From a virus: a stretch of 64,000 bases of DNA. This document shows positions 26-37,822 of this stretch, piece by piece (the stretch's first letter is position 1; the number at the start of each line of letters is the position of its first letter). Below the pieces are notes generated by a model, which was given only the letters and a program-made list of their open reading frames with translations, made no database searches and was not told where the DNA came from. The DNA lies in the IMG/VR virus record IMGVR_UViG_3300037155_000096. One strand, written 5' to 3'. A program made the position numbers and the translations under genes.

Positions 26-46
26 ACTTACAAAAGGCGTGCTAAG
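26..46 (-). promoter_or_regulatory. sigma54-like promoter variant copy 1
   Basis: minus strand cttagcacg-cctt-ttgtaagt. Confidence 0.7.
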
Positions 47-96
47 AATTTGATTAAATTATCGGTGGGATGAACGTATTCTGTCGCAAATGTATG

Positions 97-462
97 CTAA
101 ATGTGCGACGAACAAGTCCATCGCCCGCCCCTTGCATAGGGCATAACCTGATTTAATAACGCCTGACACCTCCTGCGTTCTACTTCCCCTTTCTTCAGCA
201 ACTCTGCCTTCAATCCTAAATCATGTTCCATGAGACAAACCAAACACCAGATAGCCAAAGTATCTCCGTTATGATGTATCGTAGACATCAGCATCAGTAT
301 AAAAAATATCAGAGCAAGCGTATTCCATATACTCCAGAACACCCGTTTCCCGTAATTCTTCCTGATCGTTCTTTGTTCATATTTCAGGTATTCAATCATC
401 TCAACCGGTGAAGCTGCACCAAACCATGTATCGGGCAATTCTTTCATTTGCTTGTCGGTCAT
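97..462 (-). CDS. Hypothetical membrane protein
   Basis: ORF with hydrophobic segment WSIWNTLALIFFILMLMS; start overlaps stop of upstream gene. Confidence 0.6.
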   Translation of the reverse strand: MTDKQMKELPDTWFGAASPVEMIEYLKYEQRTIRKNYGKRVFWSIWNTLALIFFILMLMSTIHHNGDTLAIWCLVCLMEHDLGLKAELLKKGEVERRRCQALLNQVMPYARGGRWTCSSHI

Positions 463-797
463 AGGAAACTCCTTATGTAATCTGCAATCGGGTTATCTAA
501 TCTGCGAATTGCATCCGCTATCTCTTCTTCCAGCCCGGCCATTTCCGTGGCTAATCCTCCCTGCCATTGCGAGCCGATATGGCTGAACTTCGGATCTCCG
601 AAGAAAACATGTCCCTCCGTAACCAGCAGACCGACCGTAGTGAATCCATCCTGAACGCTAAGGCATACCGTATAACAGTAGCCGTCATTCTTGACATGGT
701 ACAAATAGTTAGTCATCTGATGTTCTTTCGGAGAGGTACAAACCGGTTCGTAAGTAACACCTTCGACGACAATGTTGGTATCTATGCTTACTTTCAT
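459..797 (-). CDS. Hypothetical protein, paralog of 794..1132
   Basis: 112 aa; shared YHV..G..YT...GHV...SH...W..G...LE...DAI pattern. Confidence 0.7.
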   Translation of the reverse strand: MKVSIDTNIVVEGVTYEPVCTSPKEHQMTNYLYHVKNDGYCYTVCLSVQDGFTTVGLLVTEGHVFFGDPKFSHIGSQWQGGLATEMAGLEEEIADAIRRLDNPIADYIRSFL

Positions 798-1132
798 AAG
801 TGTATCGTTAACATTTTACGTTTTTCTAATTTCTTGATCGCATCCTCAACCCAGTCCTCCAGTTCATCATTCTTTATCTTGAAGCCGGATTCCCATTCAG
901 GCGGATACATCCTGTGACTTAATTTCCAATCTACCTTTACATGCCCTCTGCACATGACTACTCCCAGCGTGGCATTAGTTGCATCATTTGTAACATTAAC
1001 TGCAATGGTATATTTTTCGCCGCTTGCCAAAACATGATAAACGTGGCTAACCAGATACTTCTCCAGTTTGATTCTGGATACAGCCTGATAGCCTTCGCTT
1101 CTAAACATTAACGGGAACTTGGATATCTTCAT
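794..1132 (-). CDS. Hypothetical protein, paralog of 459..797
   Basis: 112 aa; same motif pattern; 4-bp overlap. Confidence 0.7.
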   Translation of the reverse strand: MKISKFPLMFRSEGYQAVSRIKLEKYLVSHVYHVLASGEKYTIAVNVTNDATNATLGVVMCRGHVKVDWKLSHRMYPPEWESGFKIKNDELEDWVEDAIKKLEKRKMLTIHL

Positions 1133-1133
1133 G

Positions 1134-1346
1134 TCAGTTAAACGGTATTAAATTCAGTAGTACAACATTCGTGACTTTATTTTCGGTCTGCAGGAAGTTC
1201 ACCAATTTCTCTACATCCTTGTCCTTACGGATCTTCTTCATGCGAACAAATCGTCCGGACGTACATGAAACCGATGGACTCTTCGCGCATTCATACGATA
1301 CATAATATCCTATTTTCCTATTTCGGCTTCTTAATGGTCTAATCAT
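1134..1346 (-). CDS. Hypothetical protein
   Basis: ORF in co-oriented run. Confidence 0.45.
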   Translation of the reverse strand: MIRPLRSRNRKIGYYVSYECAKSPSVSCTSGRFVRMKKIRKDKDVEKLVNFLQTENKVTNVVLLNLIPFN

Positions 1347-1397
1347 CAGGCTATACCCTTACTTTTCTTGAACAATATTCAGGTTATACCCTGATTT

Positions 1398-1850
1398 TCA
1401 TCCTTCACTTAATTTCTTCGCTATTGCCGCCCCGATATCGAATCCAACAAACTCCTGTTCTTTCGGTATGGGTGTGCTTTCAACAATCTGAGCCTCTTCA
1501 ATGCTGCCGTCCCCTCTTTCAAAGAATTCCCGGTTATGTCCATGCCAAAGCGGATACTTCGGCGGATCTAACAAGAACATAATGATTGCAATACCTTCTT
1601 CTCCCCATGTTTTGCGGACCACATCATTCATGGACATACCGAACTCTTCATAATTTCCTAAACGTTCCTTGATAACACTATCGAAGCCAATGATATCGAA
1701 TCCAAGCGGTATCGGTTCTTTAATCAGGAATCTCTCCAGATCGGTGCCGAACACTCTTTTGAAATCCTTGCCCTTGTACCGGCAGTTCTGAAATCTGACC
1801 ATCATATCATAAAATACTGTGCCGGGCTTGAGCATATCTTCTTCAGTCAT
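1398..1850 (-). CDS. Hypothetical protein
   Basis: 150 aa ORF, aggaagg RBS, overlaps upstream stop. Confidence 0.65.
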   Translation of the reverse strand: MTEEDMLKPGTVFYDMMVRFQNCRYKGKDFKRVFGTDLERFLIKEPIPLGFDIIGFDSVIKERLGNYEEFGMSMNDVVRKTWGEEGIAIIMFLLDPPKYPLWHGHNREFFERGDGSIEEAQIVESTPIPKEQEFVGFDIGAAIAKKLSEG

Positions 1851-2091
1851 TGCCTTCCTTTATGAATAACTTTTCATTTAATTTCTTGTCAAGCCATGAA
1901 ATTCTGAAGGCTATGCCTATACAACACAATATCCAGAAGAACGTCAGACCTGATGCTATTGCCATAGCGCTCCACTGCGCTACTCCTGCGATTGCAAAGA
2001 CCGAGATACCTTGCAGTGCGGCTACGACTAACATTACTTTCAGTGTCTTTGCCCAATTCCATTTTTTCAATGCTTCCGGTTCTGTAATCAT
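1843..2091 (-). CDS. Small two-TM membrane protein
   Basis: Two hydrophobic helices. Confidence 0.6.
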   Translation of the reverse strand: MITEPEALKKWNWAKTLKVMLVVAALQGISVFAIAGVAQWSAMAIASGLTFFWILCCIGIAFRISWLDKKLNEKLFIKEGND

Positions 2092-2205
2092 TTACTTAAT
2101 TCCTCAATGAGTTAAAAAATGCCATGCTACTTTTATTATACACAAAGCTACGATTGCTAAAGCTACTTTCCATAAACATCCTGAACATCCCATAATACGT
2201 TTCCT

Positions 2206-3384
2206 TTATTTTTTCTTTTTACGTTTCGTTAACTGTGCTGCGCCTAATCTCTGATATGCAGATGGCTGTGTCTCGGACACCGGAGACTTTTTTGCTTTTT
2301 TCTTGGTCTTAGACTTAAACTTATTCGTCAAAGCTGCATCAGCATTAGCTCCGAGCTGAGCAATATCAAGTTTAGTAACGTTCATTTCCAGAGCGAGTCC
2401 TTCCCCCTCAATTCGAGCAGCAATCCTGTCAATGGGGATCATACGAGCCGCCAGATAAGCGATTCGCTCTTTAGTCTTATCAACATCGATACAATTAAAC
2501 GTTTTGGTCAGGAATGCTGAACTAGCCTTCTTTGTCGTTAATTGCAAAATGCTCTGGTGATGCAATATATACTCGTTTCCTTTAATCTCCTCCACATTCT
2601 CGGTATTCCCTAAGAACCTAATGATCGACTCTATCGTCTGACCGCCACTATCCCTGCAATATTTTTCTAATATCGCCTTTACATTGTCAACTTTCGGACA
2701 TTTCAATAAGTGTACTTTGCCTGACTCCCTGTCCTGCAGCGTAACATATCCGGATTTCTTTTCCATCGTGCCTGGCTGGGCTGTAAAATGCGTATAAACT
2801 GCAGTCGGAATCATATTCTCATTGCCAAGCTGTCCTATGATATGACCTACATCTTTGCCTTCTTCTGCCAGTTGTCGCGCCCTCACAAGGACTCGATCCT
2901 TCGATTCATGCGGAACGGCTATCGAATATGGTATGCTGTCCTCTCTGTCCCTCATGGTTATGAGGCAGGTTCCGGTATATTTTTTCGAGCCTCCGAAATC
3001 AATCGGAACGTGCGGATTCTTCAAATCCTTTATGCGTGCAATCTGACATATTCCTATCTTGACATATTTCCCCTCGTGAATAGAACCGATTCCTATGTCG
3101 GCTAATATTCTCCCTGGCACAACATCACCATCCTGAAGGGCTGCCAAATCGATGTTTCTACGGATATTTTTCTGAATATGTTCATCAATAATCTCGTCTG
3201 GCGAGAACACCGTTACCTTATCCCCGTCCTGGCGGTTCACCTTAGCTTTCAACTCCACGAGCATATTATCAAATTTCTTCGCAAGCTCGGGCATGCCTTT
3301 GGTTCGGGCATCTTCAGACAGAAATAACAATTCAGCCCAATTAAAGCCATTTACAGTGTATACGTGCTTTTCGGTAACTTCCAT
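2206..3384 (-). CDS. Hypothetical protein with internal repeats and Lys-rich tail
   Basis: 392 aa ORF directly downstream of promoter copy 2; ends TKRKKKK. Confidence 0.75.
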   Translation of the reverse strand: MEVTEKHVYTVNGFNWAELLFLSEDARTKGMPELAKKFDNMLVELKAKVNRQDGDKVTVFSPDEIIDEHIQKNIRRNIDLAALQDGDVVPGRILADIGIGSIHEGKYVKIGICQIARIKDLKNPHVPIDFGGSKKYTGTCLITMRDREDSIPYSIAVPHESKDRVLVRARQLAEEGKDVGHIIGQLGNENMIPTAVYTHFTAQPGTMEKKSGYVTLQDRESGKVHLLKCPKVDNVKAILEKYCRDSGGQTIESIIRFLGNTENVEEIKGNEYILHHQSILQLTTKKASSAFLTKTFNCIDVDKTKERIAYLAARMIPIDRIAARIEGEGLALEMNVTKLDIAQLGANADAALTNKFKSKTKKKAKKSPVSETQPSAYQRLGAAQLTKRKKKK

Positions 3385-3432
3385 TTTATCTCCAATAACG
3401 GTTTAATCGTTAATTTTTATGTTTGTAAGATA

Positions 3433-3453
3433 ACTTACAAGAAACGTGCTAAG
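3433..3453 (-). promoter_or_regulatory. sigma54-like promoter variant copy 2
   Basis: cttagcacg-tttc-ttgtaagt. Confidence 0.7.
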
Positions 3454-3463
3454 AAAAAAGGTA

Positions 3464-3788
3464 GTCAATACCCGACCTACGTAGCTGGTTCGATAGTGTC
3501 TGACCTATCGGATTGGATCATCGCCACCGACTATCAACAAATGCGAAAGGAACTGTTTCTGAGACGCTCCACCGAGGCATACGTTTTTGCACAAAGTATG
3601 CGTGAGCTTCAGTGCGAACACAGAGGTTTGCGGACTGAGTGTCTTTTCTAAGGACACTATTACCGCTAGACCATTCCTTACTCTCATGCTAGTATGCAAC
3701 CCACATGATCGGTTCTCGCAACTCTTTCAAGGATGCTGGTTATTGCAGCCACCTCCTAAACGAATTCCGGAAACTGCAGGTACTTGAC
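3464..3788. ncRNA. Candidate structured non-coding element (HEARO/omegaRNA- or MITE-like)
   Basis: 325 bp without a credible ORF; inverted termini gtcaataccc/ggtacttgac; several hairpins. Confidence 0.4.
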
Positions 3789-3995
3789 TTAAACTTTCTT
3801 AATTTTAATCTGGCGCGGATCTGCCTCGTACTCAATTTCTTCACCGCCCAGTTCATTTATAATCGCTAATAACAAGGGATCAACTTCATCACTGACTTCG
3901 TGGAAACAGTTACATGGAATCAGAAACGTCATGTCATCATGTTCTCTTTCTCCAGTGCCATGGCATAACGGACAATCGTGGTTCGGTACTCTCAT
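3789..3995 (-). CDS. Small Zn-finger-like protein
   Basis: CPLCHGTG...CNC motif. Confidence 0.6.
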   Translation of the reverse strand: MRVPNHDCPLCHGTGEREHDDMTFLIPCNCFHEVSDEVDPLLLAIINELGGEEIEYEADPRQIKIKKV

Positions 3996-4026
3996 TAAGA
4001 TAGACTCAATTTGTTACAAAAATAAA

Positions 4027-4971
4027 TTATTCGATGCCAGTTGCCGGCCATTTCGCCGAGATTTCAGATATCTCTTCATCCAAGAATGACATCGCACTTT
4101 TGACATCCACCGGCATTATCTTCTTAATCGGTTTCCTTCTGGGTGCCTTCATCATCTTTTTCGTGGGCCAACCCTTTTCCTCAGCTAACGTTAATTCTCT
4201 GGGTGCTTTGGATACTCCCATTACTTCCATCTTCTCAATTTCTTCCGGAGTGAATGCTGGAGCCAATTTACCGAGCAATTCATCTTCCTTTTTAGACTTT
4301 CCTGTTTTCTTATTATTTTCCTTAATGTATGCCTTAATCAACGCCTCAGCTTCATCCATCTTATCAGAGTCAAAGCCTCCGCAGATCGTCCCAAATCCGT
4401 CAGTCAGCATATCGTAAGCATTAGCTGCCGCCCCGAGGCATCCATCTTCCCGAACCTCCTTCAGCCATTCGGCTTGAACAGCTGCATCAGTAGGAGATAC
4501 AACCGATTCAAAATATATCGCTGCTGGCAAATATCCGTCCAGACCAGCCAGTTCGTCCGCCTCTGATTTCCCGCCCTTAAATCCTATGGACATATCCCAA
4601 AAGAATCCTTCAGCGTCTTTACCGTCAGCACCGATTACCCGGTTCTCCCATAAGTAAACTATCTGCCAGCCATTATTATTGTCTTCCTTATATAAATCCG
4701 AAACTTTCTTATAAGTATCCGTCTCATCTACAAAGTCATTCAGCCCATCGTCCGTAATTGCCGCCACGTAACGATAAGCCTTCTGCCAGTCTCCCCTGAT
4801 GATCATTCCGGACTGAGTCTTGCTCTCGTGCCATTTTGCGAATAGCTTTACGAATGCCATAGCACCATAAGGCTGGGACCGTGGAGAATTCCAGTGTTTA
4901 TAAAACGAGGCGAAATTTACCTCCCCTTCTTTATTCTTGCTGACTACGTACGTCTGATGTCGTTGTCCCAT
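4027..4971 (-). CDS. Phage-type hypothetical protein (MGQRHQ start)
   Basis: ATG at 4971 after aaaggata; ORF track extends to 5031. Confidence 0.7.
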   Translation of the reverse strand: MGQRHQTYVVSKNKEGEVNFASFYKHWNSPRSQPYGAMAFVKLFAKWHESKTQSGMIIRGDWQKAYRYVAAITDDGLNDFVDETDTYKKVSDLYKEDNNNGWQIVYLWENRVIGADGKDAEGFFWDMSIGFKGGKSEADELAGLDGYLPAAIYFESVVSPTDAAVQAEWLKEVREDGCLGAAANAYDMLTDGFGTICGGFDSDKMDEAEALIKAYIKENNKKTGKSKKEDELLGKLAPAFTPEEIEKMEVMGVSKAPRELTLAEEKGWPTKKMMKAPRRKPIKKIMPVDVKSAMSFLDEEISEISAKWPATGIE

Positions 4972-5167
4972 CCTGTATCCTTTTAATAACTTGACTCTTA
5001 AATTGCTTGCTGAACGTAGATTGCTCCACAAGCTTTAACTGTTGGTCTTTAACGCTGGTCTGCTCTTTAACAAATCGGGCTACAAATTCAATTTTCTTGA
5101 TTCTGCCTGGTCGCATACTTCTCCTATTTCCTGACTTGGGGTGTTATAAAATTTGTTATAGGTATGT

Positions 5168-5188
5168 ACTTACAAGTTCCGTGCTAAG
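5168..5188 (-). promoter_or_regulatory. sigma54-like promoter variant copy 3
   Basis: cttagcacg-gaac-ttgtaagt. Confidence 0.7.
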
Positions 5189-5217
5189 AATTTTCGGGAT
5201 TCTCTGATGCGACGGAA

Positions 5218-5784
5218 CTAAGGATCTACGCGGACACTCAGAATATCCGCCATTGTCGTGGGATGTTCGGCTACCACCGATACTGTATAATGAGCCCCTT
5301 TTCTTACTGTCAGCTTAGTCAATCGTCGGCTGGTAAAGGTCTTTGGATCGCCCAACGGAAGAAGTTCTCCATTCACTTCAAGATGCCCCTCTAATACATG
5401 CATCGTGTACGTGCCATGCGACGGATTTTCGTTAATGCCGAGGATTTCAAAATCAGCATGAGCGTGAACCGCATACTGAAAAAACCTCCCCGTGGCCTCC
5501 TCATGCAAAGGTCTTACTATCGAGTGCGGAGTAACTATCGGCGACATCTGAGTTCGTTTGCACACATGAAAGAAATCCCCTGAGCACGCCCCCAAAGCTG
5601 TGGCGATAAGTTTTATCTGGTCATACTTGGGCTGCTGCTCGCCTGAGAGCAATCTGGATATTACTGATTTGGAAAGTCCTGTCTTCTTGCAGAGCCTGAC
5701 TTGACTAAAGTCTCTGTCTGACATCATCTTATTTAATCTTGTAGAAAAAATCTTAACCTCCCCTATCGATAAAATGTGACACAA
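5218..5784 (-). CDS. XRE-family HTH regulator with C-terminal cupin-like domain
   Basis: FSQVRLCKKTGLSKSVISRLLSGEQQP HTH; HVLEGHLEVNG cupin-like; start uncertain. Confidence 0.75.
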   Translation of the reverse strand: MCHILSIGEVKIFSTRLNKMMSDRDFSQVRLCKKTGLSKSVISRLLSGEQQPKYDQIKLIATALGACSGDFFHVCKRTQMSPIVTPHSIVRPLHEEATGRFFQYAVHAHADFEILGINENPSHGTYTMHVLEGHLEVNGELLPLGDPKTFTSRRLTKLTVRKGAHYTVSVVAEHPTTMADILSVRVDP

Positions 5785-5797
5785 AATACGGATAAAA

Positions 5798-5876
5798 TTG
5801 TCAGTTAAACTTGCTCGTCTCCGGGCACGCTCCGGCTGTTGCTACGCCCTATGCCTCGCCAATTGTAAAATATGAA
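5798..5876. repeat. 79-bp direct repeat copy 1
   Basis: 71/79 identical (counted by eye) to 6222..6300. Confidence 0.9.
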
Positions 5877-5902
5877 AAGGAATTTTATTGTTACAACTTA
5901 TT

Positions 5903-6172
5903 TTATGAAGTATATCTCAATAAAACTTTTGCGTTTATTTCCTTTTCTAAATGAGTTACAAATTCAGCAAGGGTTATCTTTAGGTGAGTGCATATTTCCC
6001 GAAGTTCTATTATATCTACTTTCCTTTGACCTGTTTCAATCTTACTAATATAGGATTGAGGAACACCTAGCTTCTTAGCCAAATCAACCTGAAGAAGCCC
6101 AGCTTTTGTCCGGTATTCAGTAAATACCTGGACAAAAAACTTATATTCCTTTTTATAGATACTCTTTTTCAC
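5903..6172 (-). CDS. XRE-family HTH (controller-protein-like)
   Basis: AGLLQVDLAKKLGVPQSYISKIETGQRKVD. Confidence 0.85.
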   Translation of the reverse strand: MKKSIYKKEYKFFVQVFTEYRTKAGLLQVDLAKKLGVPQSYISKIETGQRKVDIIELREICTHLKITLAEFVTHLEKEINAKVLLRYTS

Positions 6173-6197
6173 ACCATAAATTTATATCCTGATATCG

Positions 6198-6218
6198 AAT
6201 ATCCCATTTTGGGATATT
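6198..6218. promoter_or_regulatory. Palindromic operator candidate upstream of XRE gene
   Basis: aatatccca-ttt-tgggatatt; related aatatccctttggatat at 8524..8540. Confidence 0.5.
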
Positions 6219-6221
6219 ATA

Positions 6222-6300
6222 TTGTCAATTAAACTTGCTCGTCTCCGGGCACGCTCCCGTTGTCGCTACGCCCTACACCTCACCATTTGTAAAATATGAA
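6222..6300. repeat. 79-bp direct repeat copy 2
   Basis: Matches 5798..5876. Confidence 0.9.
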
Positions 6301-12289: not shown

Positions 12290-12310
12290 CTTACAATAAA
12301 CGTGCTAAAG
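12290..12310 (-). promoter_or_regulatory. sigma54-like promoter variant copy 4
   Basis: ctttagcacg-ttta-ttgtaag. Confidence 0.7.
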
Positions 12311-12331
12311 AAAAACCGGATTTCTCCGGTT
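12311..12331 (-). terminator. Rho-independent terminator
   Basis: aaccgga-GAAA-tccggtt hairpin whose 3' arm runs into a 5-T tract on minus strand. Confidence 0.7.
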
Positions 12332-13940: not shown

Positions 13941-13960
13941 CTTACAAATAGCGTGCTAAG
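13941..13960 (-). promoter_or_regulatory. sigma54-like promoter variant copy 5
   Basis: cttagcacg-ctat-ttgtaag. Confidence 0.7.
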
Positions 13961-19507: not shown

Positions 19508-19528
19508 ACTTTCAAAGACCGTGCTAAG
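19508..19528 (-). promoter_or_regulatory. sigma54-like promoter variant copy 6
   Basis: cttagcacg-gtct-ttgaaagt. Confidence 0.7.
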
Positions 19529-21297: not shown

Positions 21298-21318
21298 ACT
21301 TACAAGAAGTGTGCTAAG
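21298..21318 (-). promoter_or_regulatory. sigma54-like promoter variant copy 7
   Basis: cttagcaca-cttc-ttgtaagt. Confidence 0.65.
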
Positions 21319-21800: not shown

Positions 21801-21821
21801 ACGAACAAGTTCCGTGCTAAG
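21801..21821 (-). promoter_or_regulatory. sigma54-like promoter variant copy 8
   Basis: cttagcacg-gaac-ttgttcgt, abutting the parB stop. Confidence 0.65.
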
Positions 21822-22673
21822 TTATTTTTTAGCTTTCAGAACCCGTAACTTTTCAGTTAACTGTCTAATTAAGTCTTTTTTATCAGTATACTTGAAGGTC
21901 AAACTCAGGACCGTAGACTTGATTGCATGCTTATCCCTGATTTCCCTTGCCATCACCATTGCATCTTCTGCGGGGACGAATTCCTGATAAATTATTTTGT
22001 CGAACAAGGCTTTTTGTTCATCCGGGAAATCCTTAATCAGGTGCAAAGCTTTTGCGTGGCCGATAGACATTGGAGTCTTAGCTTCCTTCTTGAAACTTAC
22101 TATCTCTTTTTGCATTTCTTCAGGCAGATTCAGGATCCTAACATAATTCTTTCTTGTCGATTCTGATATTCCAAGCATTGCCTCCACTTCAGACCAGGGT
22201 GCATTTTCTCCCAGCATGCCCTTGTACTCCAAAAGAGCGTATGCTTTATCCACCACATTCAGATCTTCCCGACATAAATTCTCAATCAACTGCTTAGCAA
22301 AGATGTCCTTGCCATCAGAAGGCTTCAGAATCATGCATGGCAGTTCCGCTATGCCAAGATCTCGTGCCGCCCGATATCTTCTCTCCCCCGTAATCAAAAC
22401 AAACGTACCAGCGTCTTCTGAGCGAACTGTGAGTGGCTGCAATATTCCATGCATCTGTATGGAATTCATCAATTCCTGCATTTTAGCGGGATCAAACTCC
22501 TTTCTGGGCTGGTTTTCGTCCGGATGAACGAGTTCTATTGCGATTATTCGGGCATTAGATAACCTTTTTGACTGACTATACCCGCCATCGGACTGGAATT
22601 TACTGGTCAATTCAATTCCAGGTCTATCGTTCTTTAGGGATTCATTAAGCTGTTTCGTAAAATTTTTCGACAC
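21822..22673 (-). CDS. parB: ParB partition protein
   Basis: QPRKEFD, ILQPLTVR, GERRYRA CTP-binding motif, HTH. Confidence 0.92.
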   Translation of the reverse strand: MSKNFTKQLNESLKNDRPGIELTSKFQSDGGYSQSKRLSNARIIAIELVHPDENQPRKEFDPAKMQELMNSIQMHGILQPLTVRSEDAGTFVLITGERRYRAARDLGIAELPCMILKPSDGKDIFAKQLIENLCREDLNVVDKAYALLEYKGMLGENAPWSEVEAMLGISESTRKNYVRILNLPEEMQKEIVSFKKEAKTPMSIGHAKALHLIKDFPDEQKALFDKIIYQEFVPAEDAMVMAREIRDKHAIKSTVLSLTFKYTDKKDLIRQLTEKLRVLKAKK

Positions 22674-23442
22674 GTTCCATCATCTCCTTGAAAAGTGATT
22701 TAATCGTAAGAACTCCATCTTCCTGACTGATGGACTTGTTGGCTATTAACTTATGCGTGGAATTTGCTTCTGCAAAAAGAGGTATATTCCTAACTATGCT
22801 CTTGAAAACCGTGTCTCCGTATAAATTTCTAATCACCTTTACCATGTCCGCTTCATATCTACGTCGTCCCAATAACTTGTTTATTACGATACCAAGTAAA
22901 ACCAAATCCGGGTTACTACGTTTCTTGATAGCATCAACCGTTGCCGTTAACTGATTAGCTCCGCTTGCCGCCCATTCTCCAGCTTCCACCGGAACTACGA
23001 AGAATGAAGCATAGGTTAGAGCCATCCTGGTCGCCCGCAATAAATTCGGAGCGCAATCGAGGATCACATAATCATAATCTCTTTCGACATCCACCAGCGC
23101 CTCCTTCAATCTAAACTGAGCATCATCTGCCATCGCCAGTTTGATATCCACGTCTCCGAATGCCAGATTGCATGGGATAATGTCGATTAACTTCCATTTC
23201 GTCGGCTGGATTATATCTTTCGCTGGTGTATCATTGACAATCAGGTCATTTATGGTAAGCGGTATGGTCTGATATTCCTTATTCAGAAAGAATTTCGACA
23301 TATTGCCCTGCGGATCTGTATCCACAAGCAGTATCCTACTTTTCTTATCCGAAGCTGCCGCTCCAGCTATCTGAATAGTGAGCGTGGTCTTGCCGACTCC
23401 CCCTTTTTGGTTCGCAAATGCAATCCGTACCGGTTCTTTCAT
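22645..23442 (-). CDS. parA: ParA partition ATPase
   Basis: NQKGGVGKTT deviant Walker A, DTDPQGN, ILDCAP. Confidence 0.95.
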   Translation of the reverse strand: MKEPVRIAFANQKGGVGKTTLTIQIAGAAASDKKSRILLVDTDPQGNMSKFFLNKEYQTIPLTINDLIVNDTPAKDIIQPTKWKLIDIIPCNLAFGDVDIKLAMADDAQFRLKEALVDVERDYDYVILDCAPNLLRATRMALTYASFFVVPVEAGEWAASGANQLTATVDAIKKRSNPDLVLLGIVINKLLGRRRYEADMVKVIRNLYGDTVFKSIVRNIPLFAEANSTHKLIANKSISQEDGVLTIKSLFKEMMERVEKFYETA

Positions 23443-23444
23443 GC

Positions 23445-24764
23445 CTACTCCTTCTCAGGGGGCACGACGTGCCCCCTCTGTTCAAGAATCTTATTTATGG
23501 TCACCAAAATGGCTCCCCGAATGAAAATCGGGGCATTTTCGTACAATTCCACCGTGAATTCCTTTAAGGGGACACCGTATTTCTTCAATCCGTCCTTATT
23601 GGCATAATCGAATGCCTCTGGATCAGATTTTTCCAGAAGGACAATCGCTTCATCAAATAATTTCTTTTGTCCATCTTTCGTAAGAGCCAGCCATTGTTTC
23701 CTTAATTGCTGGTCCTTCGCCAGTCTTATTTTGTCCCTCCCCTTACCCAACTCCTCCTTTTCGTGACGTTCATTCTTATTCTTCAGGATCTTCATTTGTT
23801 CTTCCCTGAACTTGACATATCCTTTGGGAATTTCATATCCATTTTCAAGAGCCGATATCAGAAAACCGGTTATGTTTTTCTCCGCCTTTGAATATCCGAG
23901 CTTCAAACTTTCAACCCACTGGGCAATTTCTTCTTCATCGAACCGGGTGAGCAATTCCTTAACTCCATCTTCCGTGACTCCCAAATTCTTTAGTTCTACG
24001 GCTAGTCCAGAGGAAAACAAATCAGGGGACTCCGGTGCTGGCAATGACGAGCCTGGTCTTCTTGAAATCTTAAATTTCACAGCGTCGGGCTTTCGGTTCG
24101 GTTTGTATTCAACTTCGATGTTAATCTCAGCATCAGGTATCGAATGGATATCTTCGATGGGCTTGTTTATCAGTTTCTTTTTCAGATCTCGCAGGTCTTG
24201 ATATTCGTGGACTCCGACTCCCATGAGTTTCTTGAATATCGAGATCGGAATCCATGGAGTCTCCCCGTAGGTTCTCTTTACATCATAGTAATCGATGCAG
24301 AGTTCATACATTGCAAGTGAGTATTTTGACATGAAGTTATTTTGCATCCGCAAGTTGATCCTTGCATACATTCTTGGATTATATAACTTCTCTCGCAGTC
24401 CCTTGTAATATCCCCAATAAATCTTGCCTTCCTTAAACGTAGCACCAGCCAAGAAAGTAGTCGTACCCCATTCCGCTACACCATCCTTCCCCAGAATATT
24501 CCATTCGATTTGCGTAGTATTCAAAGCTATGAGTGTGCTTTTCAGATAGTCCCGATTCGAATCTCCATACTCCAACATATCACATAGTTCTATAATGGGC
24601 ATGCTATATTCTTCTTTATTCTGGAGTTCATCATAGGCGTGGGCAAGTAGTACGTTCCAGGCTTTTCGTTGTAGTAAACTTACTACATTATTCACCTGAA
24701 TCGACGCAGAATGCTTAATGACCGACTGCGGTCTAGGCGTATTCGTTGTAATTGTCTTGGTCAA
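23445..24764 (-). CDS. rep: Rep_3-family replication initiator
   Basis: SLLQRKAWNVLL, SKYSLAMYEL, ISIFKKLMGV; TTG start; adjacent iterons and parAB. Confidence 0.85.
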   Translation of the reverse strand: MTKTITTNTPRPQSVIKHSASIQVNNVVSLLQRKAWNVLLAHAYDELQNKEEYSMPIIELCDMLEYGDSNRDYLKSTLIALNTTQIEWNILGKDGVAEWGTTTFLAGATFKEGKIYWGYYKGLREKLYNPRMYARINLRMQNNFMSKYSLAMYELCIDYYDVKRTYGETPWIPISIFKKLMGVGVHEYQDLRDLKKKLINKPIEDIHSIPDAEINIEVEYKPNRKPDAVKFKISRRPGSSLPAPESPDLFSSGLAVELKNLGVTEDGVKELLTRFDEEEIAQWVESLKLGYSKAEKNITGFLISALENGYEIPKGYVKFREEQMKILKNKNERHEKEELGKGRDKIRLAKDQQLRKQWLALTKDGQKKLFDEAIVLLEKSDPEAFDYANKDGLKKYGVPLKEFTVELYENAPIFIRGAILVTINKILEQRGHVVPPEKE

Positions 24765-24789
24765 AACGATTGCTCTTGTGTTACGGGAA

Positions 24790-24836
24790 CAAACTTAATA
24801 AAATCATTGGGACAAAAGCAAATATAAACGTCCACA
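24790..24836 (-). promoter_or_regulatory. rep promoter (TTG-N21-TAAGTTTG) with adjacent iteron
   Basis: TAnnTTTG at 24790..24797, TTG at 24819..24821, iteron tataaacgtccaca 24823..24836. Confidence 0.55.
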
Positions 24837-24889
24837 TTTGTCAAGTGTCCGCATTATAACAACATTGCAGTACAATTTTCAGGAATGTT

Positions 24890-25356
24890 ATGAATACTCT
24901 ATACTTTGCTGATTGTTTAGACGTGCTAAAAGATTTGTGCCATCATCACCCAGACCTAAGCTACATAGATCCACCATTTAATTCAAAACGCGATTATAAT
25001 ATCCTTTTCGAGTCCATTGATATCAAGGTTTCGACGGATATTTTACTTTCACCAAATCTGACGAGAAAAGAGGGTTGTCACTGGTAGAGATCAAAAGCGG
25101 GCATGTCAATGTCAAGAACGTCCGGGAATTTATTCAGGTTCTAAAGACCAAGAAGGCTGACCACGGTGTTTTCGTCTGCTTCAAGGACAAAGCCTATCCT
25201 AATCGATACGACAAGGTTCAGATACTAACTGTTGAGGATATTCTGGACGGTATAGGAATTAACCTTCCTTTGGAGCAGGGACTGAAGAAAAGCACGTTCA
25301 AAGCCGCTACTAAGTCTTTAACTCCCATTACGAAGGAAGAATCTTTTTTCGATTAG
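24890..25356 (+). pseudogene. Internally deleted DNA methyltransferase / Mrr-like fusion
   Basis: LYFADCLDVL..YIDPPFNSKRDYN joined to QGFDG...VEIKSG...VQILTVEDIL; central part missing. Confidence 0.75.
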
Positions 25357-25360
25357 TCGG

Positions 25361-25691
25361 TATAAACGTCCACAATCGACTTAATACTGATATAAACGTC
25401 CACATTCATTTTCGAATGATATAAATGACCACATTGTAAACGTCCCAACTTGGTGCCTCATTCATCCCTTCAGGTAAGTCCAGACACCTATTTTCAGTGT
25501 TTTTAGCCACTTATGGGCATGAATTTGAGGTCAGAAACCGTTATAGACGTCCACAATCAGCCCGGAATATAGACGTCCACATTACATTGATATAAACGAC
25601 CACAGTTCTGATATGAACATCCACAAAACCCATTATAAACAACCCCTTTTCATAATACAAACATCCACAGAAATCGTTATAAACGACCACA
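25361..25691. repeat. Iteron array (consensus TATAAACGWCCACA)
   Basis: Copies at 25361, 25391, 25420, 25542, 25568, 25591, 25612, 25634, 25656, 25678; last spacings 21-22 bp; AT-rich tract follows. Confidence 0.85.
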
Positions 25692-29324: not shown

Positions 29325-29344
29325 ATTTCAAAAACCGTGCTAAG
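29325..29344 (-). promoter_or_regulatory. sigma54-like promoter variant copy 9
   Basis: cttagcacg-gttt-ttgaaat. Confidence 0.65.
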
Positions 29345-32125: not shown

Positions 32126-32571
32126 TCGAACTTCTCCTTTGAACCTTCCGGCTCGATATAATTTTTACCATCATAAATAATTGCATTCTCAATGTCGCCC
32201 TCACGTACAGGGCATAATATCCACTTGCTTGGATTTTCAGATTGTCGTTCAAGGCATATATCGAGCGGATAGATAATATGGTCAAACATGCCTTCAGGCA
32301 GATCATCCAATGTTTTGTTCATCACCTGATAACCAATAACCGGGCGTTTTCTGAACATCGGATCGATATATTCGATGTTGAACTTCTTCAGGGCATCTTC
32401 GTAATCGTCCGGATGAATGTTCTTGTTCTCGATATTGAGTTCATTCAGGAATATTTCGCTTAACTCAGCCGTCTGATCTCCATCAAGCGGTTCGCCATCC
32501 CATAGAAAAGCTAAATCCCTAGCACATTGCTGTATCACCTTATACGCCTTTCGAGTGTAAAGTCCTTTCAT
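32122..32571 (-). CDS. Hypothetical protein
   Basis: 4-bp overlaps. Confidence 0.6.
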   Translation of the reverse strand: MKGLYTRKAYKVIQQCARDLAFLWDGEPLDGDQTAELSEIFLNELNIENKNIHPDDYEDALKKFNIEYIDPMFRKRPVIGYQVMNKTLDDLPEGMFDHIIYPLDICLERQSENPSKWILCPVREGDIENAIIYDGKNYIEPEGSKEKFE

Positions 32572-33041
32572 TTTTTCAAGTCCTTATTACGTTTCGGATA
32601 GTTAAACAAACCTTTCGGCGGAGTGGAATCCCTGACTTTTTTGCCACCATTCAGGACGTACGGATCTATCATTTGAAACGTAGATTCCGTTAAATCTTTC
32701 ATCGTCCTTTCATTCATAAGATATGCCATACCAAGCTCCCAATTCATTTTTGCTGAGCGTGTGGCAAGTTCAGATCTTTTAATAAACGTCATAATCTCAG
32801 CGTTCTTGCATGACTGCCAGAAGCCGATGTTACCATCTTCATACAGGAAGGCGTTGATAACACCCTGAAGTGTCATCTTCTGCTTGTAATATTGCTTCAA
32901 CGCCTGAAGAACTATGCAAGTCTTATCATGTGTACGATGCCACTTAAACAGGTGGGCCAGGAATAATTTCTCCTCATAGGGAAGAACCTCAAATTTCGTA
33001 GTGAATTCCGCTGGCAATTTATCTTCTGCCATAATCATCAT
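32568..33041 (-). CDS. Hypothetical protein
   Basis: ORF in run. Confidence 0.6.
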   Translation of the reverse strand: MMIMAEDKLPAEFTTKFEVLPYEEKLFLAHLFKWHRTHDKTCIVLQALKQYYKQKMTLQGVINAFLYEDGNIGFWQSCKNAEIMTFIKRSELATRSAKMNWELGMAYLMNERTMKDLTESTFQMIDPYVLNGGKKVRDSTPPKGLFNYPKRNKDLKK

Positions 33042-33285
33042 CCTCGTTTTCTAATACCATTGGCAGATCAGACAATAACTGTCTGTACGTTTGTTCGGAA
33101 GAAAGTCCATCTGCATAATAATTTCTTAACTGTTCGTCATTAAATTGTTCGAGATACTGAGCGCCATCGACACACTGGACATCCTCACAATATTTGAGAA
33201 CTTCCATGTACCAGTCGAGATACTTGTCGCTATCCCGCCGAAGGTTTCGTTTTTCGTTTATTTTCGCTGTTTCCATTTGTCCCAT
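33019..33285 (-). CDS. Hypothetical protein
   Basis: ORF in run. Confidence 0.55.
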   Translation of the reverse strand: MGQMETAKINEKRNLRRDSDKYLDWYMEVLKYCEDVQCVDGAQYLEQFNDEQLRNYYADGLSSEQTYRQLLSDLPMVLENEDDDYGRR

Positions 33286-33311
33286 AATGTATCTTATGTA
33301 AACTTACAATT

Positions 33312-33446
33312 CTATTGTGACTGCAAACACTCCCCTTCTCGCGCTACAATTTTCTCCACTTTCTTATGACCGTAAACTATCAAAGTAGCCCACGGCTCGT
33401 ACAATGTTAGTACCCGCATCTTATCCCTAAATGTTAGTACCCGCAT
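33312..33446 (-). pseudogene. ASCH-domain 5' fragment with 27-bp tandem duplication
   Basis: MRVLTLYEPWATLIVYGHKKVE then unrelated tail; duplication 33403..33429/33430..33456. Confidence 0.7.
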
Positions 33447-33483
33447 CTTATCCCTAATTGGTTATAAAATTGTTGTATGATTT

Positions 33484-33504
33484 ACTTTCAAATCCCGTGC
33501 TAAG
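33484..33504 (-). promoter_or_regulatory. sigma54-like promoter variant copy 10
   Basis: cttagcacg-ggat-ttgaaagt. Confidence 0.7.
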
Positions 33505-33535
33505 AAAAAATAAAGGCAGACCGGAATTTCACCAA

Positions 33536-33742
33536 TCACTTAATTTCCTTATAAAGTATCATAGCTGAGAAATACTCCCACGTACAGACTGCTCCTTTAT
33601 ATATCCCTATGGCATACTTGATATCCAATACTTCTACGATTGTCTCTTCATCGAGCCATTCCTGTACGGCATTTCCTAAGTTCTCAGCCGAAGCCATCGT
33701 AATTGTATGAATCTTAATTTCATTCGATTTCGTTGGAATCAT
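33536..33742 (-). CDS. Small protein (Cse60-like)
   Basis: LGNAVQEWL...VLDIKY. Confidence 0.45.
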   Translation of the reverse strand: MIPTKSNEIKIHTITMASAENLGNAVQEWLDEETIVEVLDIKYAIGIYKGAVCTWEYFSAMILYKEIK

Positions 33743-34218
33743 GACGGTACTTCTTTATCCTTAGCAAGTATTGGCAGTTCGACTTCCTTTACAGGAATAG
33801 AGAACTGGTTTGCCAGAAACTGTTTGAGCGAATCTACGCTTCCATCAGCCTCCATGAATTCGTCATATACCTTTTCGAAGGTTGCTTTACCAGCATCAAA
33901 ATCATTGAGAGCCTTCACTACCCTGCAATCCTTTGGCTTATGCTCCCCATGCCATAGTCGAATATAATCGATAATCTCATTGGACTGGTCTTCCTCGAAG
34001 ATAACTCCCTGATAGTTCTCGTCTCCGAGTGGCTCCCCGAAGAATCCCACCAAATCATTGGCAAATTTCTCTACTGCTTCCTTATCCGGACCTTTATACG
34101 TAGCAATGCCCTCCCCTGTCGCCAGAGAATATACATCCACTTCGTTTATTTCGCCGTCAAGAACTCTCTGAACTACGATTGTTTCATCGTTATACTTGTA
34201 ATGCGCTGAGGACATCAT
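33739..34218 (-). CDS. Acidic hypothetical protein
   Basis: aaggaagg RBS. Confidence 0.6.
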   Translation of the reverse strand: MMSSAHYKYNDETIVVQRVLDGEINEVDVYSLATGEGIATYKGPDKEAVEKFANDLVGFFGEPLGDENYQGVIFEEDQSNEIIDYIRLWHGEHKPKDCRVVKALNDFDAGKATFEKVYDEFMEADGSVDSLKQFLANQFSIPVKEVELPILAKDKEVPS

Positions 34219-34243
34219 GCTAATACCTTCCTTTTAATTTCAT

Positions 34244-34519
34244 TTAATCATCTACCGTGACAGCAAAATGGCTTACACTCCATCCTATCGTCTCAAACAT
34301 TTGCTTCAGTAATGATTCGATTTTACATTTTGTTGATTCATTCGTATCATCTTCCGGATCATTCATGATTTTGGTTAGGACACTAACCTCATATATCCTC
34401 TGGTTTGTGCCGTCATTCAGTGGATCTCCCGTCTCCCAGACATTATATCCTGCTATTCTATCCAGAACATCACTATCAATCTCATCGAGTTTGAAAAATG
34501 CTATTTTACCGAAAGTCAT
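34244..34519 (-). CDS. Hypothetical protein
   Basis: Likely start MTFGK overlapping upstream stop. Confidence 0.55.
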   Translation of the reverse strand: MTFGKIAFFKLDEIDSDVLDRIAGYNVWETGDPLNDGTNQRIYEVSVLTKIMNDPEDDTNESTKCKIESLLKQMFETIGWSVSHFAVTVDD

Positions 34520-35238
34520 GATGTCGCCTTTAATTTTAGTTTTACTTTTCCGCCTACAGCCATAACTACCTGCGTCGTGCAAAGGTGTGGCTCTTTTAAT
34601 ACTATCGGGATCTCTTTATGACAGAATTCACATGGTATCGTTACTTCATCCCCGCCTTTCATATCAGGGGAAGAAATATCTTCCACACCATGAATAAAAT
34701 CAGGTACTATTTCCAAAAACTTTGCCGGAGCCTTATTCTCCATGCTTATCTTATCTCCAGCCCAATGTCCGACCAAATACATACTGGAGCCGTGGTAATC
34801 TCCGCTGCCTCTATTATTCCCACTCGCTGTTAGCAGCGGAAGCGGATGTATCTGTAATCCGTCTATTTCTGCTGGAACCGCCTCAAGATCTACGTACTCC
34901 TGTTTTGTGTGGTTCACAATGAACATGAATCCAGATATAGAAGTTGCTTTTACTTTTCTTGGTGTCTTAAATTTCCTGGCTATATGATTCAGGTTGGTCG
35001 CTTTTTCCGCAGCACGGATCTCCGCCACCGTCATGAAGGCGTCGGCATCACCATAATCGCCAGCCCAAACGAGCGGTTGCTTATACCAGCCGTGTTTCGG
35101 TCTGAGCAGAACCTCCACCGCCGCAACGAATTCATTATCGACGAACCCATGCTCCATCAGTTTACCGCCATTCTCATAATCATGCGGGAACATTGCTTCC
35201 CGTTTCTCGGGATTTACCGCTATATATGTCTGTCCCAT
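34516..35238 (-). CDS. Phage-type conserved protein
   Basis: MGQ.Y..VN...KLMEH...VWAGDY...IHPLPLLTA.GN.RG.GDY. Confidence 0.7.
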   Translation of the reverse strand: MGQTYIAVNPEKREAMFPHDYENGGKLMEHGFVDNEFVAAVEVLLRPKHGWYKQPLVWAGDYGDADAFMTVAEIRAAEKATNLNHIARKFKTPRKVKATSISGFMFIVNHTKQEYVDLEAVPAEIDGLQIHPLPLLTASGNNRGSGDYHGSSMYLVGHWAGDKISMENKAPAKFLEIVPDFIHGVEDISSPDMKGGDEVTIPCEFCHKEIPIVLKEPHLCTTQVVMAVGGKVKLKLKATS

Positions 35239-35374
35239 TATCTCGTCCTCTCTAATTTATCCATTAACTCTTTGGCATACTTCTCGATTTCTTCTTCAGG
35301 AACACACATTGCTTTAAGAAATGCAAGAAAGTCATCCCAACGTTCTTCAATATAAATCTTTACTAAATCCATTA

Positions 35375-35788
35375 TTATCTCATCGGATATTCTTTATCGT
35401 ACAATTCAAACTGATACTCATTCGAGATTTTATACGCACTTTTCGTCCCCCAAAACGTTAATCTTTCGAATAGCCAGTTTATCTGCCTCTCGTTCCTGGG
35501 CAGCGGAACCTGCAGGGGACACTGAGTCGCCTTATTAAAACAGCCCTTATGGTCAATAAACAGCGTGACCGGACCTTCATCTTCTCTTTTGCCCAGGAAT
35601 CCATAGATTCCATGACCGGTAATCTTATAGCAGTCATCGCCTTCGGAGACCACATCATAGTTCGCTTTTTTGAGCATGGCCACCATCTCATCGATAGTGA
35701 CTTCTACATTCCGTTTCCTTGGTTCAAACGATTTCGGATCCAATTCAAAATCCACAGCATCCAGATCTTTGCCATTTTTATACATCAC
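35375..35788 (-). CDS. Hypothetical protein
   Basis: Coupled to HD gene. Confidence 0.6.
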   Translation of the reverse strand: MMYKNGKDLDAVDFELDPKSFEPRKRNVEVTIDEMVAMLKKANYDVVSEGDDCYKITGHGIYGFLGKREDEGPVTLFIDHKGCFNKATQCPLQVPLPRNERQINWLFERLTFWGTKSAYKISNEYQFELYDKEYPMR

Positions 35789-36309
35789 GCTGACTCCCTC
35801 ACTTCCAATTCTTTACTCATATACATATCCAGAAGCGCCCACATTTCCTGATGCAGATCTCCGAACTGCAGCATTGCCTTGAATAGCGCATACTGTTTCT
35901 TATACGAGTTGAAAAACTTCTCGTTATGAAACGCCCAACTTCTACGGACATTGGCAATTCTATCAGCAAGTTTCAGCTGAACAGCCTTCTGACATTCCGC
36001 AGTTTTGGTATACGTTCTCACCAGTGACTCCTTCTTGTCCTTTCCAGGCTCATTCGTAACTCGCCATACGATTTCAGAGACTTCATCGCCGAAATACTTG
36101 GCTATCAGCTTCCGAGTCACCTGAGTGTCCTCTACGGCGTCATGGAGCCAGGCAGCAACCAATATCGGTTCGTCCGTTACACCAAATTCGTCCAGAAGGA
36201 TCTCATAAACGTTGTTCAGATGTTCCGAGTAAGGCAACCCATCCCCGTATTTCTGTTTAGCATGGAGCATTTCTGCCACCATTTTAGCATTTTTAATATT
36301 TTCTGTCAT
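35785..36309 (-). CDS. RelA/SpoT-type HD hydrolase (small alarmone hydrolase-like)
   Basis: PYSEHL...V, AWLHDAVEDT, VTN, KLADRIANV. Confidence 0.85.
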   Translation of the reverse strand: MTENIKNAKMVAEMLHAKQKYGDGLPYSEHLNNVYEILLDEFGVTDEPILVAAWLHDAVEDTQVTRKLIAKYFGDEVSEIVWRVTNEPGKDKKESLVRTYTKTAECQKAVQLKLADRIANVRRSWAFHNEKFFNSYKKQYALFKAMLQFGDLHQEMWALLDMYMSKELEVRESA

Positions 36310-37160
36310 ACTACATCCTTTGGATACTCCCGAATCTTTAGATGCTCGGGAAAATCCTCTATATTTCTAATTACTTTATCTTCCCCTGATAATTGCTTAA
36401 CGAATAGCGGCGTCTTGTTCATCTGGCAAGCCTCCCTGATGTCGTTTATCCAACTTACCGGACAATCCCTTCTCGAAGTACCAGATTCGCAGCCGACTAC
36501 CACCCAATCTATGCGCTGTAGCCCGCCGCTTCTGGGGAAATCTTTCGCCATTTTCAGACATCCACCGCACCTGCATAATGTATCGCCCAATGTTTTGGAT
36601 TGCAGGTCGATTCTGGATAACATTGGCTCAATACTTACCCACCTTAAAGCCACCGGCATCTGCATGAGTATCAGAATTCTTTTGTCTGCCATTTCCTGAT
36701 CCTCAGCCGTAACACCGAACCATAAATTCTTCATTCCGGATTTGTACCATGCTTCAAAACTTGAACTTGCAACATGCTTGGTCATCCAATCCGCCAGATA
36801 CGCATAAAACTCCAAAGCTCTCTCAGGTCTTTTCGTAAGCACCTGAAACGTATGCTTCGGACATCTTGCCATCGTAGCATACACTCTGAAAATAAATTCA
36901 AACGGGACGTCCTCGTGAAATAAATCAGACATCGAATTAACAAAAATCTTTCGTGGCTTCTGCCACCTGTAAGGGATCTCCAATTTATCGGTGTGGCACT
37001 TGACATCCGTAAATTTCCTGTCGTCCTTGCCGAACTCGCCGAGCCTTCTTTTGGCATAATTCTCTGCATAGCAGTGTTTACAGCCGGCACTTACCTTGTC
37101 GCAACCAGTAACGGGATTCCAGGAACTGTTAGTCCATGCAATTTCGCTTTTACTTCCCAT
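36306..37160 (-). CDS. DUF5131 (phage Gp37/Gp68) radical-SAM-like protein
   Basis: WNPVTGCDKVSAGCKHCYAE, FVNSMSDLFH, SIEPML, WVVVGCESG. Confidence 0.9.
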   Translation of the reverse strand: MGSKSEIAWTNSSWNPVTGCDKVSAGCKHCYAENYAKRRLGEFGKDDRKFTDVKCHTDKLEIPYRWQKPRKIFVNSMSDLFHEDVPFEFIFRVYATMARCPKHTFQVLTKRPERALEFYAYLADWMTKHVASSSFEAWYKSGMKNLWFGVTAEDQEMADKRILILMQMPVALRWVSIEPMLSRIDLQSKTLGDTLCRCGGCLKMAKDFPRSGGLQRIDWVVVGCESGTSRRDCPVSWINDIREACQMNKTPLFVKQLSGEDKVIRNIEDFPEHLKIREYPKDVV

Positions 37161-37164
37161 TATT

Positions 37165-37728
37165 TTACATGCACTCCTTTATAACTTCGCTTTCAATTTC
37201 TTTCATGGATGTCCACGGAATCATGGTTTCTCCCTGCTGATCTATCAGATAAATCGGAATCTTTAATTCCTGAGCTATTCTGATTTCGCTATCAACGCCA
37301 CCCGACGTATCCCATCCTGGCATGGTTACAATAATCATTTTGCTCGATACGCTTAAATACGCCCGGCAGAAGTTCTCCCAGAACTGCCAATCAGTCGGTA
37401 GAGAATAAGCAAATGCAATCGAGTGTGCATGAGCTATCGGCGAAAATATCGTGTAGCCTTTGTTCATAAGTACCCCAGCTACTCTACTTGCGTCCATCGC
37501 TCGTTTATCCCTGACCATTGAATCCGGATCTGAGTACGGAGAGGACAAATAAATCAAGGGTTTACCGAACTCCTGTTCCAATCCTTTCAGTTTCTCTTCT
37601 TCAAACACAGGCATTATTTTTTTCTCCCCATGAAAATCTTCACGTTGTTCCATTGTAACTGAACAAATGCCACACCGCCGAGCCTTATTAAATCCAAAAG
37701 GTTCACATGGGCAAGGTGGTCCGGGCAC
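37165..37728 (-). CDS. DUF1937 / nucleoside deoxyribosyltransferase-like protein
   Basis: IYLSSPYS, FSPIAHAH, W..SGGV..EI..A; start may be 37614. Confidence 0.75.
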   Translation of the reverse strand: MPGPPCPCEPFGFNKARRCGICSVTMEQREDFHGEKKIMPVFEEEKLKGLEQEFGKPLIYLSSPYSDPDSMVRDKRAMDASRVAGVLMNKGYTIFSPIAHAHSIAFAYSLPTDWQFWENFCRAYLSVSSKMIIVTMPGWDTSGGVDSEIRIAQELKIPIYLIDQQGETMIPWTSMKEIESEVIKECM

Positions 37729-37801
37729 AATCCGAGATAGTGCATTATCGATTCGATCATTGTCGTAACTTGATTTGTTAAAAAATATGTTATGAGGGAT
37801 A

Positions 37802-37822
37802 ACTTACAAGAAGCGTGCTAAG
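37802..37822 (-). promoter_or_regulatory. sigma54-like promoter variant copy 11
   Basis: cttagcacg-cttc-ttgtaagt. Confidence 0.7.

Follow-up and report, generated by a model that had tools for sequence, protein, structure and literature searches.

Results

A repeated intergenic element in the early region of an uncultured phage

The 64,000-nt stretch of DNA analyzed here (IMG/VR virus record IMGVR_UViG_3300037155_000096; hereafter, the window) is the early region of an uncultured T4-like phage of approximately 179–185 kb with rep/par genes of plasmid type arranged as an operon. A Rep3 initiator, ParA, ParB, an ATP-dependent ligase and many orphan proteins are encoded in the window, and a short sequence, TTAGCACG-N4-TTGW, recurs between the genes. 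The original prediction had described 11 copies of this sequence, all on the minus strand, as noncanonical sigma-54-like promoters of an element-wide regulon. Scanning the window with this pattern returned 10 exact matches, all of them intergenic and on the minus strand (10/10), whereas shuffled sequences gave a mean of 0.03 and never reached 10. The eleventh copy (21302–21317) reads TTAGCACA and has one mismatch to the pattern. The number and strand of the predicted copies were therefore correct (10 exact and one with a single mismatch), and only their start coordinates had been placed 3–4 nt too low. When up to two mismatches were allowed, the window contained just two further matches, both on the plus strand and at chance level. 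Every copy occupies a short intergenic gap and stands 36–57 nt before a start codon that bears a Shine–Dalgarno sequence (SD). The AT-rich islands (approximately 5.8–9.1 kb and 38.2–64 kb) contain no copy, as had been predicted. Because the copies are intergenic, share one orientation and stand shortly before an SD and ATG, they behave as expected of a promoter-like regulon that serves the backbone genes and is confined to one strand, and not as a motif equally common within genes or on both strands. The copies in the window are as follows.

37806–37821, minus strand: candidate promoter core, copy 1, TTGT form (TTAGCACG-N4-TTGT); the first of the early region, approximately 45 nt before the ATG of a deoxyribosyltransferase-like / DUF5131 / HD gene run
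33488–33503, minus strand: copy 2, TTGA form; immediately 3′ of a hairpin and T-run; the downstream ASCH gene is truncated in this variant
29328–29343, minus strand: copy 3, TTGA form; lacks the AAGTWAWAC..CATAACA block and retains the A/T-rich TAAC element; precedes a 189-aa open reading frame (ORF) and a heptosyltransferase-like gene
21805–21820, minus strand: copy 4; begins 2 nt past the parB stop, 42 nt before a 136-aa ORF
21302–21317, minus strand: copy 5, with one mismatch (TTAGCACA); TAAC element followed directly by the SD
19512–19527, minus strand: copy 6, TTGA form; the upstream 94-aa ORF ends at the TAG within the motif
13944–13959, minus strand: copy 7; 57 nt before a 257-aa ORF, with a strong palindromic hairpin just 5′
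12293–12308, minus strand: copy 8; immediately 3′ of a terminator-like hairpin and T-run (12314–12331)
5172–5187, minus strand: copy 9; downstream of a helix-turn-helix (HTH) gene pair
3437–3452, minus strand: copy 10; 52 nt before a 392-aa orphan ORF, with a hairpin and T-run upstream
30–45, minus strand: copy 11; its 118-aa gene lies beyond the window start

Behind the copy at 33488–33503, a tandem duplication of approximately 27 nt (at approximately 33400–33460, minus strand) spans the ribosome site and the gene start, and the ASCH-domain gene that follows is a 44-aa remnant, compared with 165 aa in other variants.

Distribution of the element in the phage genome

Proteins identical to those of the window were found on metagenome contigs of up to 179–185 kb, which come from peat, wood and wetland according to their record and sample names. 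A near-complete genome map was assembled from loci walked outward from the window start and from an IMG/VR record of this phage (G003; 77.8 kb). In the direction of transcription, the map begins with approximately 78 kb of small early genes, with DnaB, a primase, a UvsW-like helicase, RecA, Cpn10 and SSB, and continues with a glycosyltransferase/ParB operon, the terminase, a structural module with a T4-like portal, prohead protease and major capsid protein, and the sheath, baseplate and tape measure genes.

Eight further copies of the motif lie beyond the window start, on near-identical contigs. A weight-matrix scan of approximately 196 kb of phage sequence on both strands, a check that the original prediction had proposed, separated 18 copies (23.7–39.8 bits) cleanly from the rest: above 14 bits, only a single doubtful variant (15.4 bits) was found outside these 18, and shuffled sequences gave 0–2 matches at that cut. 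All 18 strong copies are codirectional with the genes and are located within the 78-kb early and replication region, and no strong copy was detected with the weight matrix in the 73-kb structural/late region or on the opposite strand of the rebuilt genome. The predicted regulon thus extends well past the window, but it occupies the early and replication half of the phage and is not element-wide. It likewise leaves out the rep-parA-parB operon, both HTH genes and the defence islands. Strict scans for the motif in genome contigs and IMG/VR produced chance or coding matches only. The repeats are very probably promoters, and, judged from their sequence and placement, one conserved promoter would start approximately 18 early and replication gene blocks.

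In the late region, a leader-like element (ATAACA...ATTAAC; L202:13511–13548, G003:33511) that has no upstream core is located immediately 5′ of the major capsid gene's ribosome site, and it may be a different, late signal.

Could the uniformity of the copies reflect gene shuffling or conversion rather than recognition by a special polymerase? A four-gene, 1.7-kb indel, present in one variant and absent from others (L024:8298–9994 versus L025:2083–2092), has its left edge exactly at a promoter leader, on the start codon that follows the copy, and approximately 10 nt are shared at the junction. Because of this edge, the layout resembles that of the PeSL (promoter-early stem-loop) cassettes, whose promoters are sigma-70-type early promoters. 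In T4-type phages, these cassettes comprise many near-identical early promoters among small variable genes, some of them behind a stem-loop (PMC2839356, PMC4122927). The copies in our phage are likewise spread over a hyperplastic region in which the genes are small orphans, approximately 5 of the 19 copies that were folded (the 18 and the variant) stand immediately behind a hairpin and T-run, and the N4 spacer forms subfamilies (GAAC five times, CTTC three times). However, recombination would not hold 14 core bases invariant while the N4 and the flanks stay free, and the phage copies differ from PeSLs in having a −24/−12 geometry and a stem-loop at only about a quarter of the sites. Moreover, PeSLs are themselves functional promoters, so that the question of what reads them would be left unanswered. 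An origin of the uniformity in recombination cassettes is therefore very improbable.

Anatomy of the aligned copies

The alignment of 19 copies (the 18 strong copies and the doubtful variant) revealed a rigid 16-bp core, TTAGCAYG-N4-TTG(T/A). GCAYG and TTG are constant across the alignment, with a G-to-A change in 21302–21317 as the sole exception. The bases of the N4 spacer are free and its length is constant in 19/19, which agrees with the invariant 4-nt spacer of the original prediction; the downstream blocks slip by ±1 nt. The base after TTG is T in 13 copies, A in five and C in one (GT, GA and GC, respectively). On its 5′ side, the core is preceded by a short A/T run with TC at its end. 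On its 3′ side, AAGT and a moderately conserved block extend to CATAACA in 9 of the 11 window copies, and the common downstream leader that had been noted in most copies is thus real. An A/T-rich stretch then closes with TAAC 27–29 nt after TTGW, and the SD and start codon follow within the next 9–28 nt. Conservation continues through TTGTAAGT and further downstream, and the consensus of the downstream block contains a GTTAT-N5-ATAAC dyad over the predicted start. Among near-identical contigs, 0 core changes were observed against approximately 2.6 expected, a level of polymorphism too low for motif footprinting.

A repeat that is strand-specific and holds a fixed place before start codons might also act in RNA, as a processing site or leader structure in long polycistronic transcripts. 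The GTTAT/ATAAC leader hairpin, the only hairpin of the block, was rejected as an RNA structure because compensatory changes are absent, and an Rfam search matched nothing. In addition, a free N4 between invariant blocks gives no pairing logic, and several copies follow terminator-like hairpins. An RNA-level signal is hardly credible on these grounds.

Resemblance to sigma-54 promoters

The −24/−12 geometry that the original prediction had assigned to the core is borne out by its invariant spacing and register: it agrees in register with the sigma-54 consensus at YT-GCAYG-N4-TTG-W. The canonical sequence TGGCACG-N4-TTGCW (Barrios compilation, PMC12316311 Table S2) likewise consists of two blocks one helical turn apart with a 4-nt spacer, and GCACG and TTG are identical in the two, whereas the phage has AG for GG and GT or GA for GC. 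Both differences had been counted as departures from the consensus. The first stands. The second, at the GC doublet (−13/−12), departs from the proteobacterial consensus and agrees with the SM4 (sigma-54) promoters of Flavobacterium psychrophilum: the five promoters with mapped transcription start sites that we could draw from PMC9723704, among them those of groS and clpB and the mutagenised remF promoter, have T, T, T, A and A at the −12 'C' (5/5 GT or GA). Because these F. psychrophilum promoters carry T or A there, GT or GA at −12 is probably no departure in the Bacteroidota. Their mapped start sites are 9–14 nt past the −12 'C' position (PMC9723704).

The SM4 promoters, which belong to a chaperone, envelope-stress and gliding regulon, resemble the phage copies in TT-G-CAY(R)-N4-TTG, in the T or A that follows and in an A/T-rich stretch (PMC9723704). 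They differ in that they serve host genes, keep GG and have activators encoded in the genome, whereas in the phage the first G is replaced by A throughout, and 18 copies serve an early program for which no enhancer motif or activator gene was found. In sequence terms, a single base separates the core from a Bacteroidota-type sigma-54 promoter. Since all the other specified bases of the shared core match, and in register, chance is an unlikely explanation. A phage promoter has been assigned to host sigma-54 before, in Pseudomonas phage YuA (PMC10914365, citing Ceyssens 2008); as presented there, it is a single sigma-54-like promoter, whereas here the entire pre-late regulon would be involved and a −24 base is changed.

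One site in the phage has both the GG and the GC hallmarks at the same spacing. It is located before the glycosyltransferase/ParB operon (G003:10042; L201:10042–10095 = L030:12230) and is followed by the same leader, CATAACAC...TTTAACA.

Predicted position of the transcription start

In three copies (21317, 12308 and 19527), no space is left between the TAAC element and the SD, so that transcription must begin 5′ of TAAC, inside the AAGT...CATAACA block, which is where a −24/−12 promoter, with its start approximately 12 nt downstream of the −12 element, would put it. For the same reason, we rejected a reading of TTGTAA as a −35 element with a −10 element 17 nt downstream: in these three copies the SD comes directly after the would-be −10 and would fall outside the transcript or at its very start.

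Other classes of promoter fared no better. A test for sigma-70-type early promoters found no fitting −35/−10 pair, and canonical sites of this type were rarer than in shuffled sequences (39 versus 51 and 34 versus 45). A Bacteroidetes primary-sigma promoter (−33 TTTG and −7 TAnnTTTG, 19–21 nt apart) was rejected, as the aligned copies have no TAnnTTTG box in any register. The downstream block resembles a promoter of a T3/T7-like single-subunit polymerase; this candidate was rejected because neither a polymerase gene nor an RNA_pol domain was present in the Pfam tables, and the large orphan ORFs proved to be a glycosyltransferase, the tape measure protein and baseplate proteins. No second repeated class of promoter was found in the early region.

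Candidate readers of the motif

What could read these sequences? The search for factors covered nearly the whole phage genome, all but approximately 4.6 kb, as judged from the assembled map, between the end of G003 and the end of the window. Sigma54_DBD, Sigma54_activat and Sigma70_r2 are missing from G003 (77.8 kb), and no sigma-54, activator ATPase or sigma-70 domain was found among the scanned ORFs of the window or in the Pfam tables precomputed for the walked loci. No plausible ORF has a GAFTGA loop, no RpoN box was detected in six frames, and tblastn with Bacillota SigL against the phage gave no match apart from a weak one to a 137-aa ORF that is not an HTH protein. The window thus has no rpoN or enhancer-binding protein gene, as originally noted, and the further suggestion that the element might encode its own sigma-54 finds no support, given the lack of such domains in the rest of the genome that was searched.

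The phage probably infects a bacterium of the Ignavibacteria type within the Bacteroidota/FCB group, because a TonB receptor in an island is 77–86% identical to proteins of Bacteroidota metagenome-assembled genomes and the phage makes heavy use of SDs. The receptor's island, seen in one variant (L023:11680–17205), encodes a cupin, an ECF-transporter S component, the TonB-dependent receptor and an ArsP-like permease; it looks like host-derived cargo and as such is a clue to the host. Ignavibacterium album encodes a complete RpoN (PMC12316311).

Since no sigma factor, activator ATPase or RNA polymerase could be recognised in the phage, the host sigma-54 holoenzyme would be the most likely factor to bind the core. 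The best reading of the repeats, in which we place about even confidence, is that they are host sigma-54-class early/middle promoters of a lineage-specific flavour. In the mechanism that we propose, the holoenzyme would bind the core, in which the −12 C is replaced by T or A in the Bacteroidota manner, and RNA would begin approximately 11–14 nt downstream of TTGW, within the conserved CATAACA. The 5′ leader would then be made up of the A/T-rich ...TAAC stretch and the SD, and the invariant A might be either the −24 preference of the host lineage itself or a deliberate tuning. The closed complex would presumably open with no shared enhancer.

Several observations weigh against this reading. The first position of the GG doublet (−25/−24) is A in 19/19 aligned copies, giving AG. 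All five of the F. psychrophilum SM4 promoters mentioned above have GG (PMC9723704), and a list of 720 validated sigma-54 promoters contains no TAGCAC, compared with 353 occurrences of TGGCAY (PMC12316311 Table S2). An invariant A argues for a reader that prefers A, a preference not known for canonical sigma-54. In favour of sigma-54, one AG precedent was seen in that list: the promoter Myxococcus xanthus 4521, in which AGCACG-N4-TTGC apparently stands at the aligned place. In addition, the block from −11 to +7 is more conserved than recognition by sigma-54 needs. The site at G003:10042 also forms a 9-bp hairpin, and its hallmarks may be a coincidence. No activator gene was found in the parts of the phage genome that were read, and k-mers within 230 nt upstream of the copies remained at background level, with no shared motif and therefore no common enhancer. 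Sigma-54 normally needs both an enhancer-binding activator and an upstream enhancer. Finally, neither the motif nor any sigma-54-type regulon was present in 80 metagenome loci found through DnaB (28–38% identity) or in 78 IMG/VR loci found through the helicase; the relatives so compared are distant, and closer ones (helicase 54–68% identical; P0128–P0133) were outside the comparison.

The invariant A and the missing enhancer make a phage-specific promoter that dispenses with sigma-54 a real, though rather unlikely, alternative. An orphan phage protein (MotA-, Lpa- or Q-like, or an unrecognisable sigma factor) would bind TCTTAGCAYG at approximately −29 to −20 and recruit host RNA polymerase to TTG-TAAGTW as an extended −10-like element, and the likeness to sigma-54 promoters would be a matter of descent or chance. 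Activator sites just 5′ of the −10 element are well known in phages, as for MotA of T4 and Lpa of P1. Such a protein would account for an A where sigma-54 wants G and for conservation that runs through and past TTGTAAGT, it would need neither an enhancer nor an enhancer-binding protein, and it could be hidden among the early proteins, most of which are orphans that match neither Pfam nor PHROG entries. On the other hand, the would-be −10 hexamer does not end in a conserved T, the box is only 7 nt from that hexamer, tighter than in known activator geometries, and the MotA and AsiA domains are missing from the Pfam tables. The genes that fire first would still need a promoter read by the host, and the early region, as noted above, has no second repeated class. 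The match to the Bacteroidota sigma-54 pattern at all but one of the specified shared-core bases would also be an unlikely product of chance.

Genes outside the control of the motif

The features of the window that the motif does not serve are as follows.

21822–24764, minus strand: rep3-parA-parB operon, inside the early region; the 776-nt gap upstream (24765–25540) has no motif copy
5218–6172, minus strand: two Xre-type HTH genes, candidate regulators or repressors
38228–64000, no strand assigned: AT-rich accessory region, free of the motif, which holds pAgo with SIR2, BREX and the Mrr-like nuclease
39294–42499, plus strand: pAgo and a SIR2-like partner, in the AT-rich island
46411–57454, plus strand: BREX (BrxC-like protein, PglX-like methylase, PglZ and BrxL), in the AT-rich island
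58610–59332, plus strand: Mrr-like nuclease, in the AT-rich island

The pAgo/SIR2, BREX and Mrr-like genes are on the strand opposite to the phage genes. Both Xre-type HTH genes stand behind a copy of an 80-nt repeat (5797–5876 and 6221–6300; 90% identical), which is G+C-rich at its core and has a promoter-like stretch, TTGTAA...ATATTT, in its vicinity. A T4-like structural module and plasmid-type Rep3 and ParA/ParB thus occur together in one phage, which may be a large phage-plasmid. None of the Pfam tables lists a family A or B DNA polymerase, and only small PolX-like genes were found.

These genes raise the question of whether the repeat is mainly an operator, bound by a global repressor that would keep the lytic early genes silent in a plasmid-prophage state, with the promoter as only part of the repeat. 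The C1 operators of P1, a phage with plasmid rep/par genes, are asymmetric sites in approximately 17 or more copies that are oriented with transcription and overlap promoters. The Rep3/ParA/ParB operon outside the control of the motif, the two Xre-type HTH genes with upstream repeats of their own, the dyad over the predicted start and the presence of defence islands, as in temperate elements, are all in keeping with such a state. However, the dyad is imperfect in most copies and missing from two, the best-conserved part, TCTTAGCAYG...TTG, is asymmetric, and no integrase or known repressor-type immunity region could be tied to the motif. Unlike in P1, a C1-like repressor was not identified in the phage, and the core resembles a recognition element for polymerase. 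A mainly operator role is improbable; moreover, a repressor overlay would add to the promoter reading without excluding it, being compatible with either sigma-54 or a phage factor.

Discussion

Early transcription of phages is, in the textbook view, the business of sigma-70. Sigma-54, which drives chaperone genes in the Bacteroidota/FCB group, is the only bacterial sigma factor that is unable to open DNA without an ATPase activator. Sigma-54 promoters as such and repeated early-promoter cassettes are known already, as is the one sigma-54-like promoter reported for phage YuA (PMC10914365); our search of the literature found no paper on a phage early regulon run by sigma-54.

In this study, the candidate promoters of the pre-late genes were found to stand a single invariant base apart from Bacteroidota-type sigma-54 promoters, which argues that the host sigma-54 polymerase probably runs the pre-late program. 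Less probable is the full form of this proposal, in which the entire program of approximately 18 operons depends on sigma-54-class promoters that have an invariant A for the first hallmark G and use no enhancers. If this is true, either the sigma-54 of the host, in its native form or remodelled by the phage, has a shifted −24 specificity, or its holoenzyme fires without site-bound activators. The 18 copies that occur naturally, all of them with A at a position supposed to be nearly immutable, provide a ready test set for the plasticity of −24 recognition.

The motif also marks the boundaries of early genes in a region of orphans that is otherwise unannotatable, and it may act as a host signature for uncultured phages. 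If 78 kb of the first genes of a phage do depend on sigma-54, this would alter the picture of how phages take over their hosts in the Bacteroidota/FCB group.

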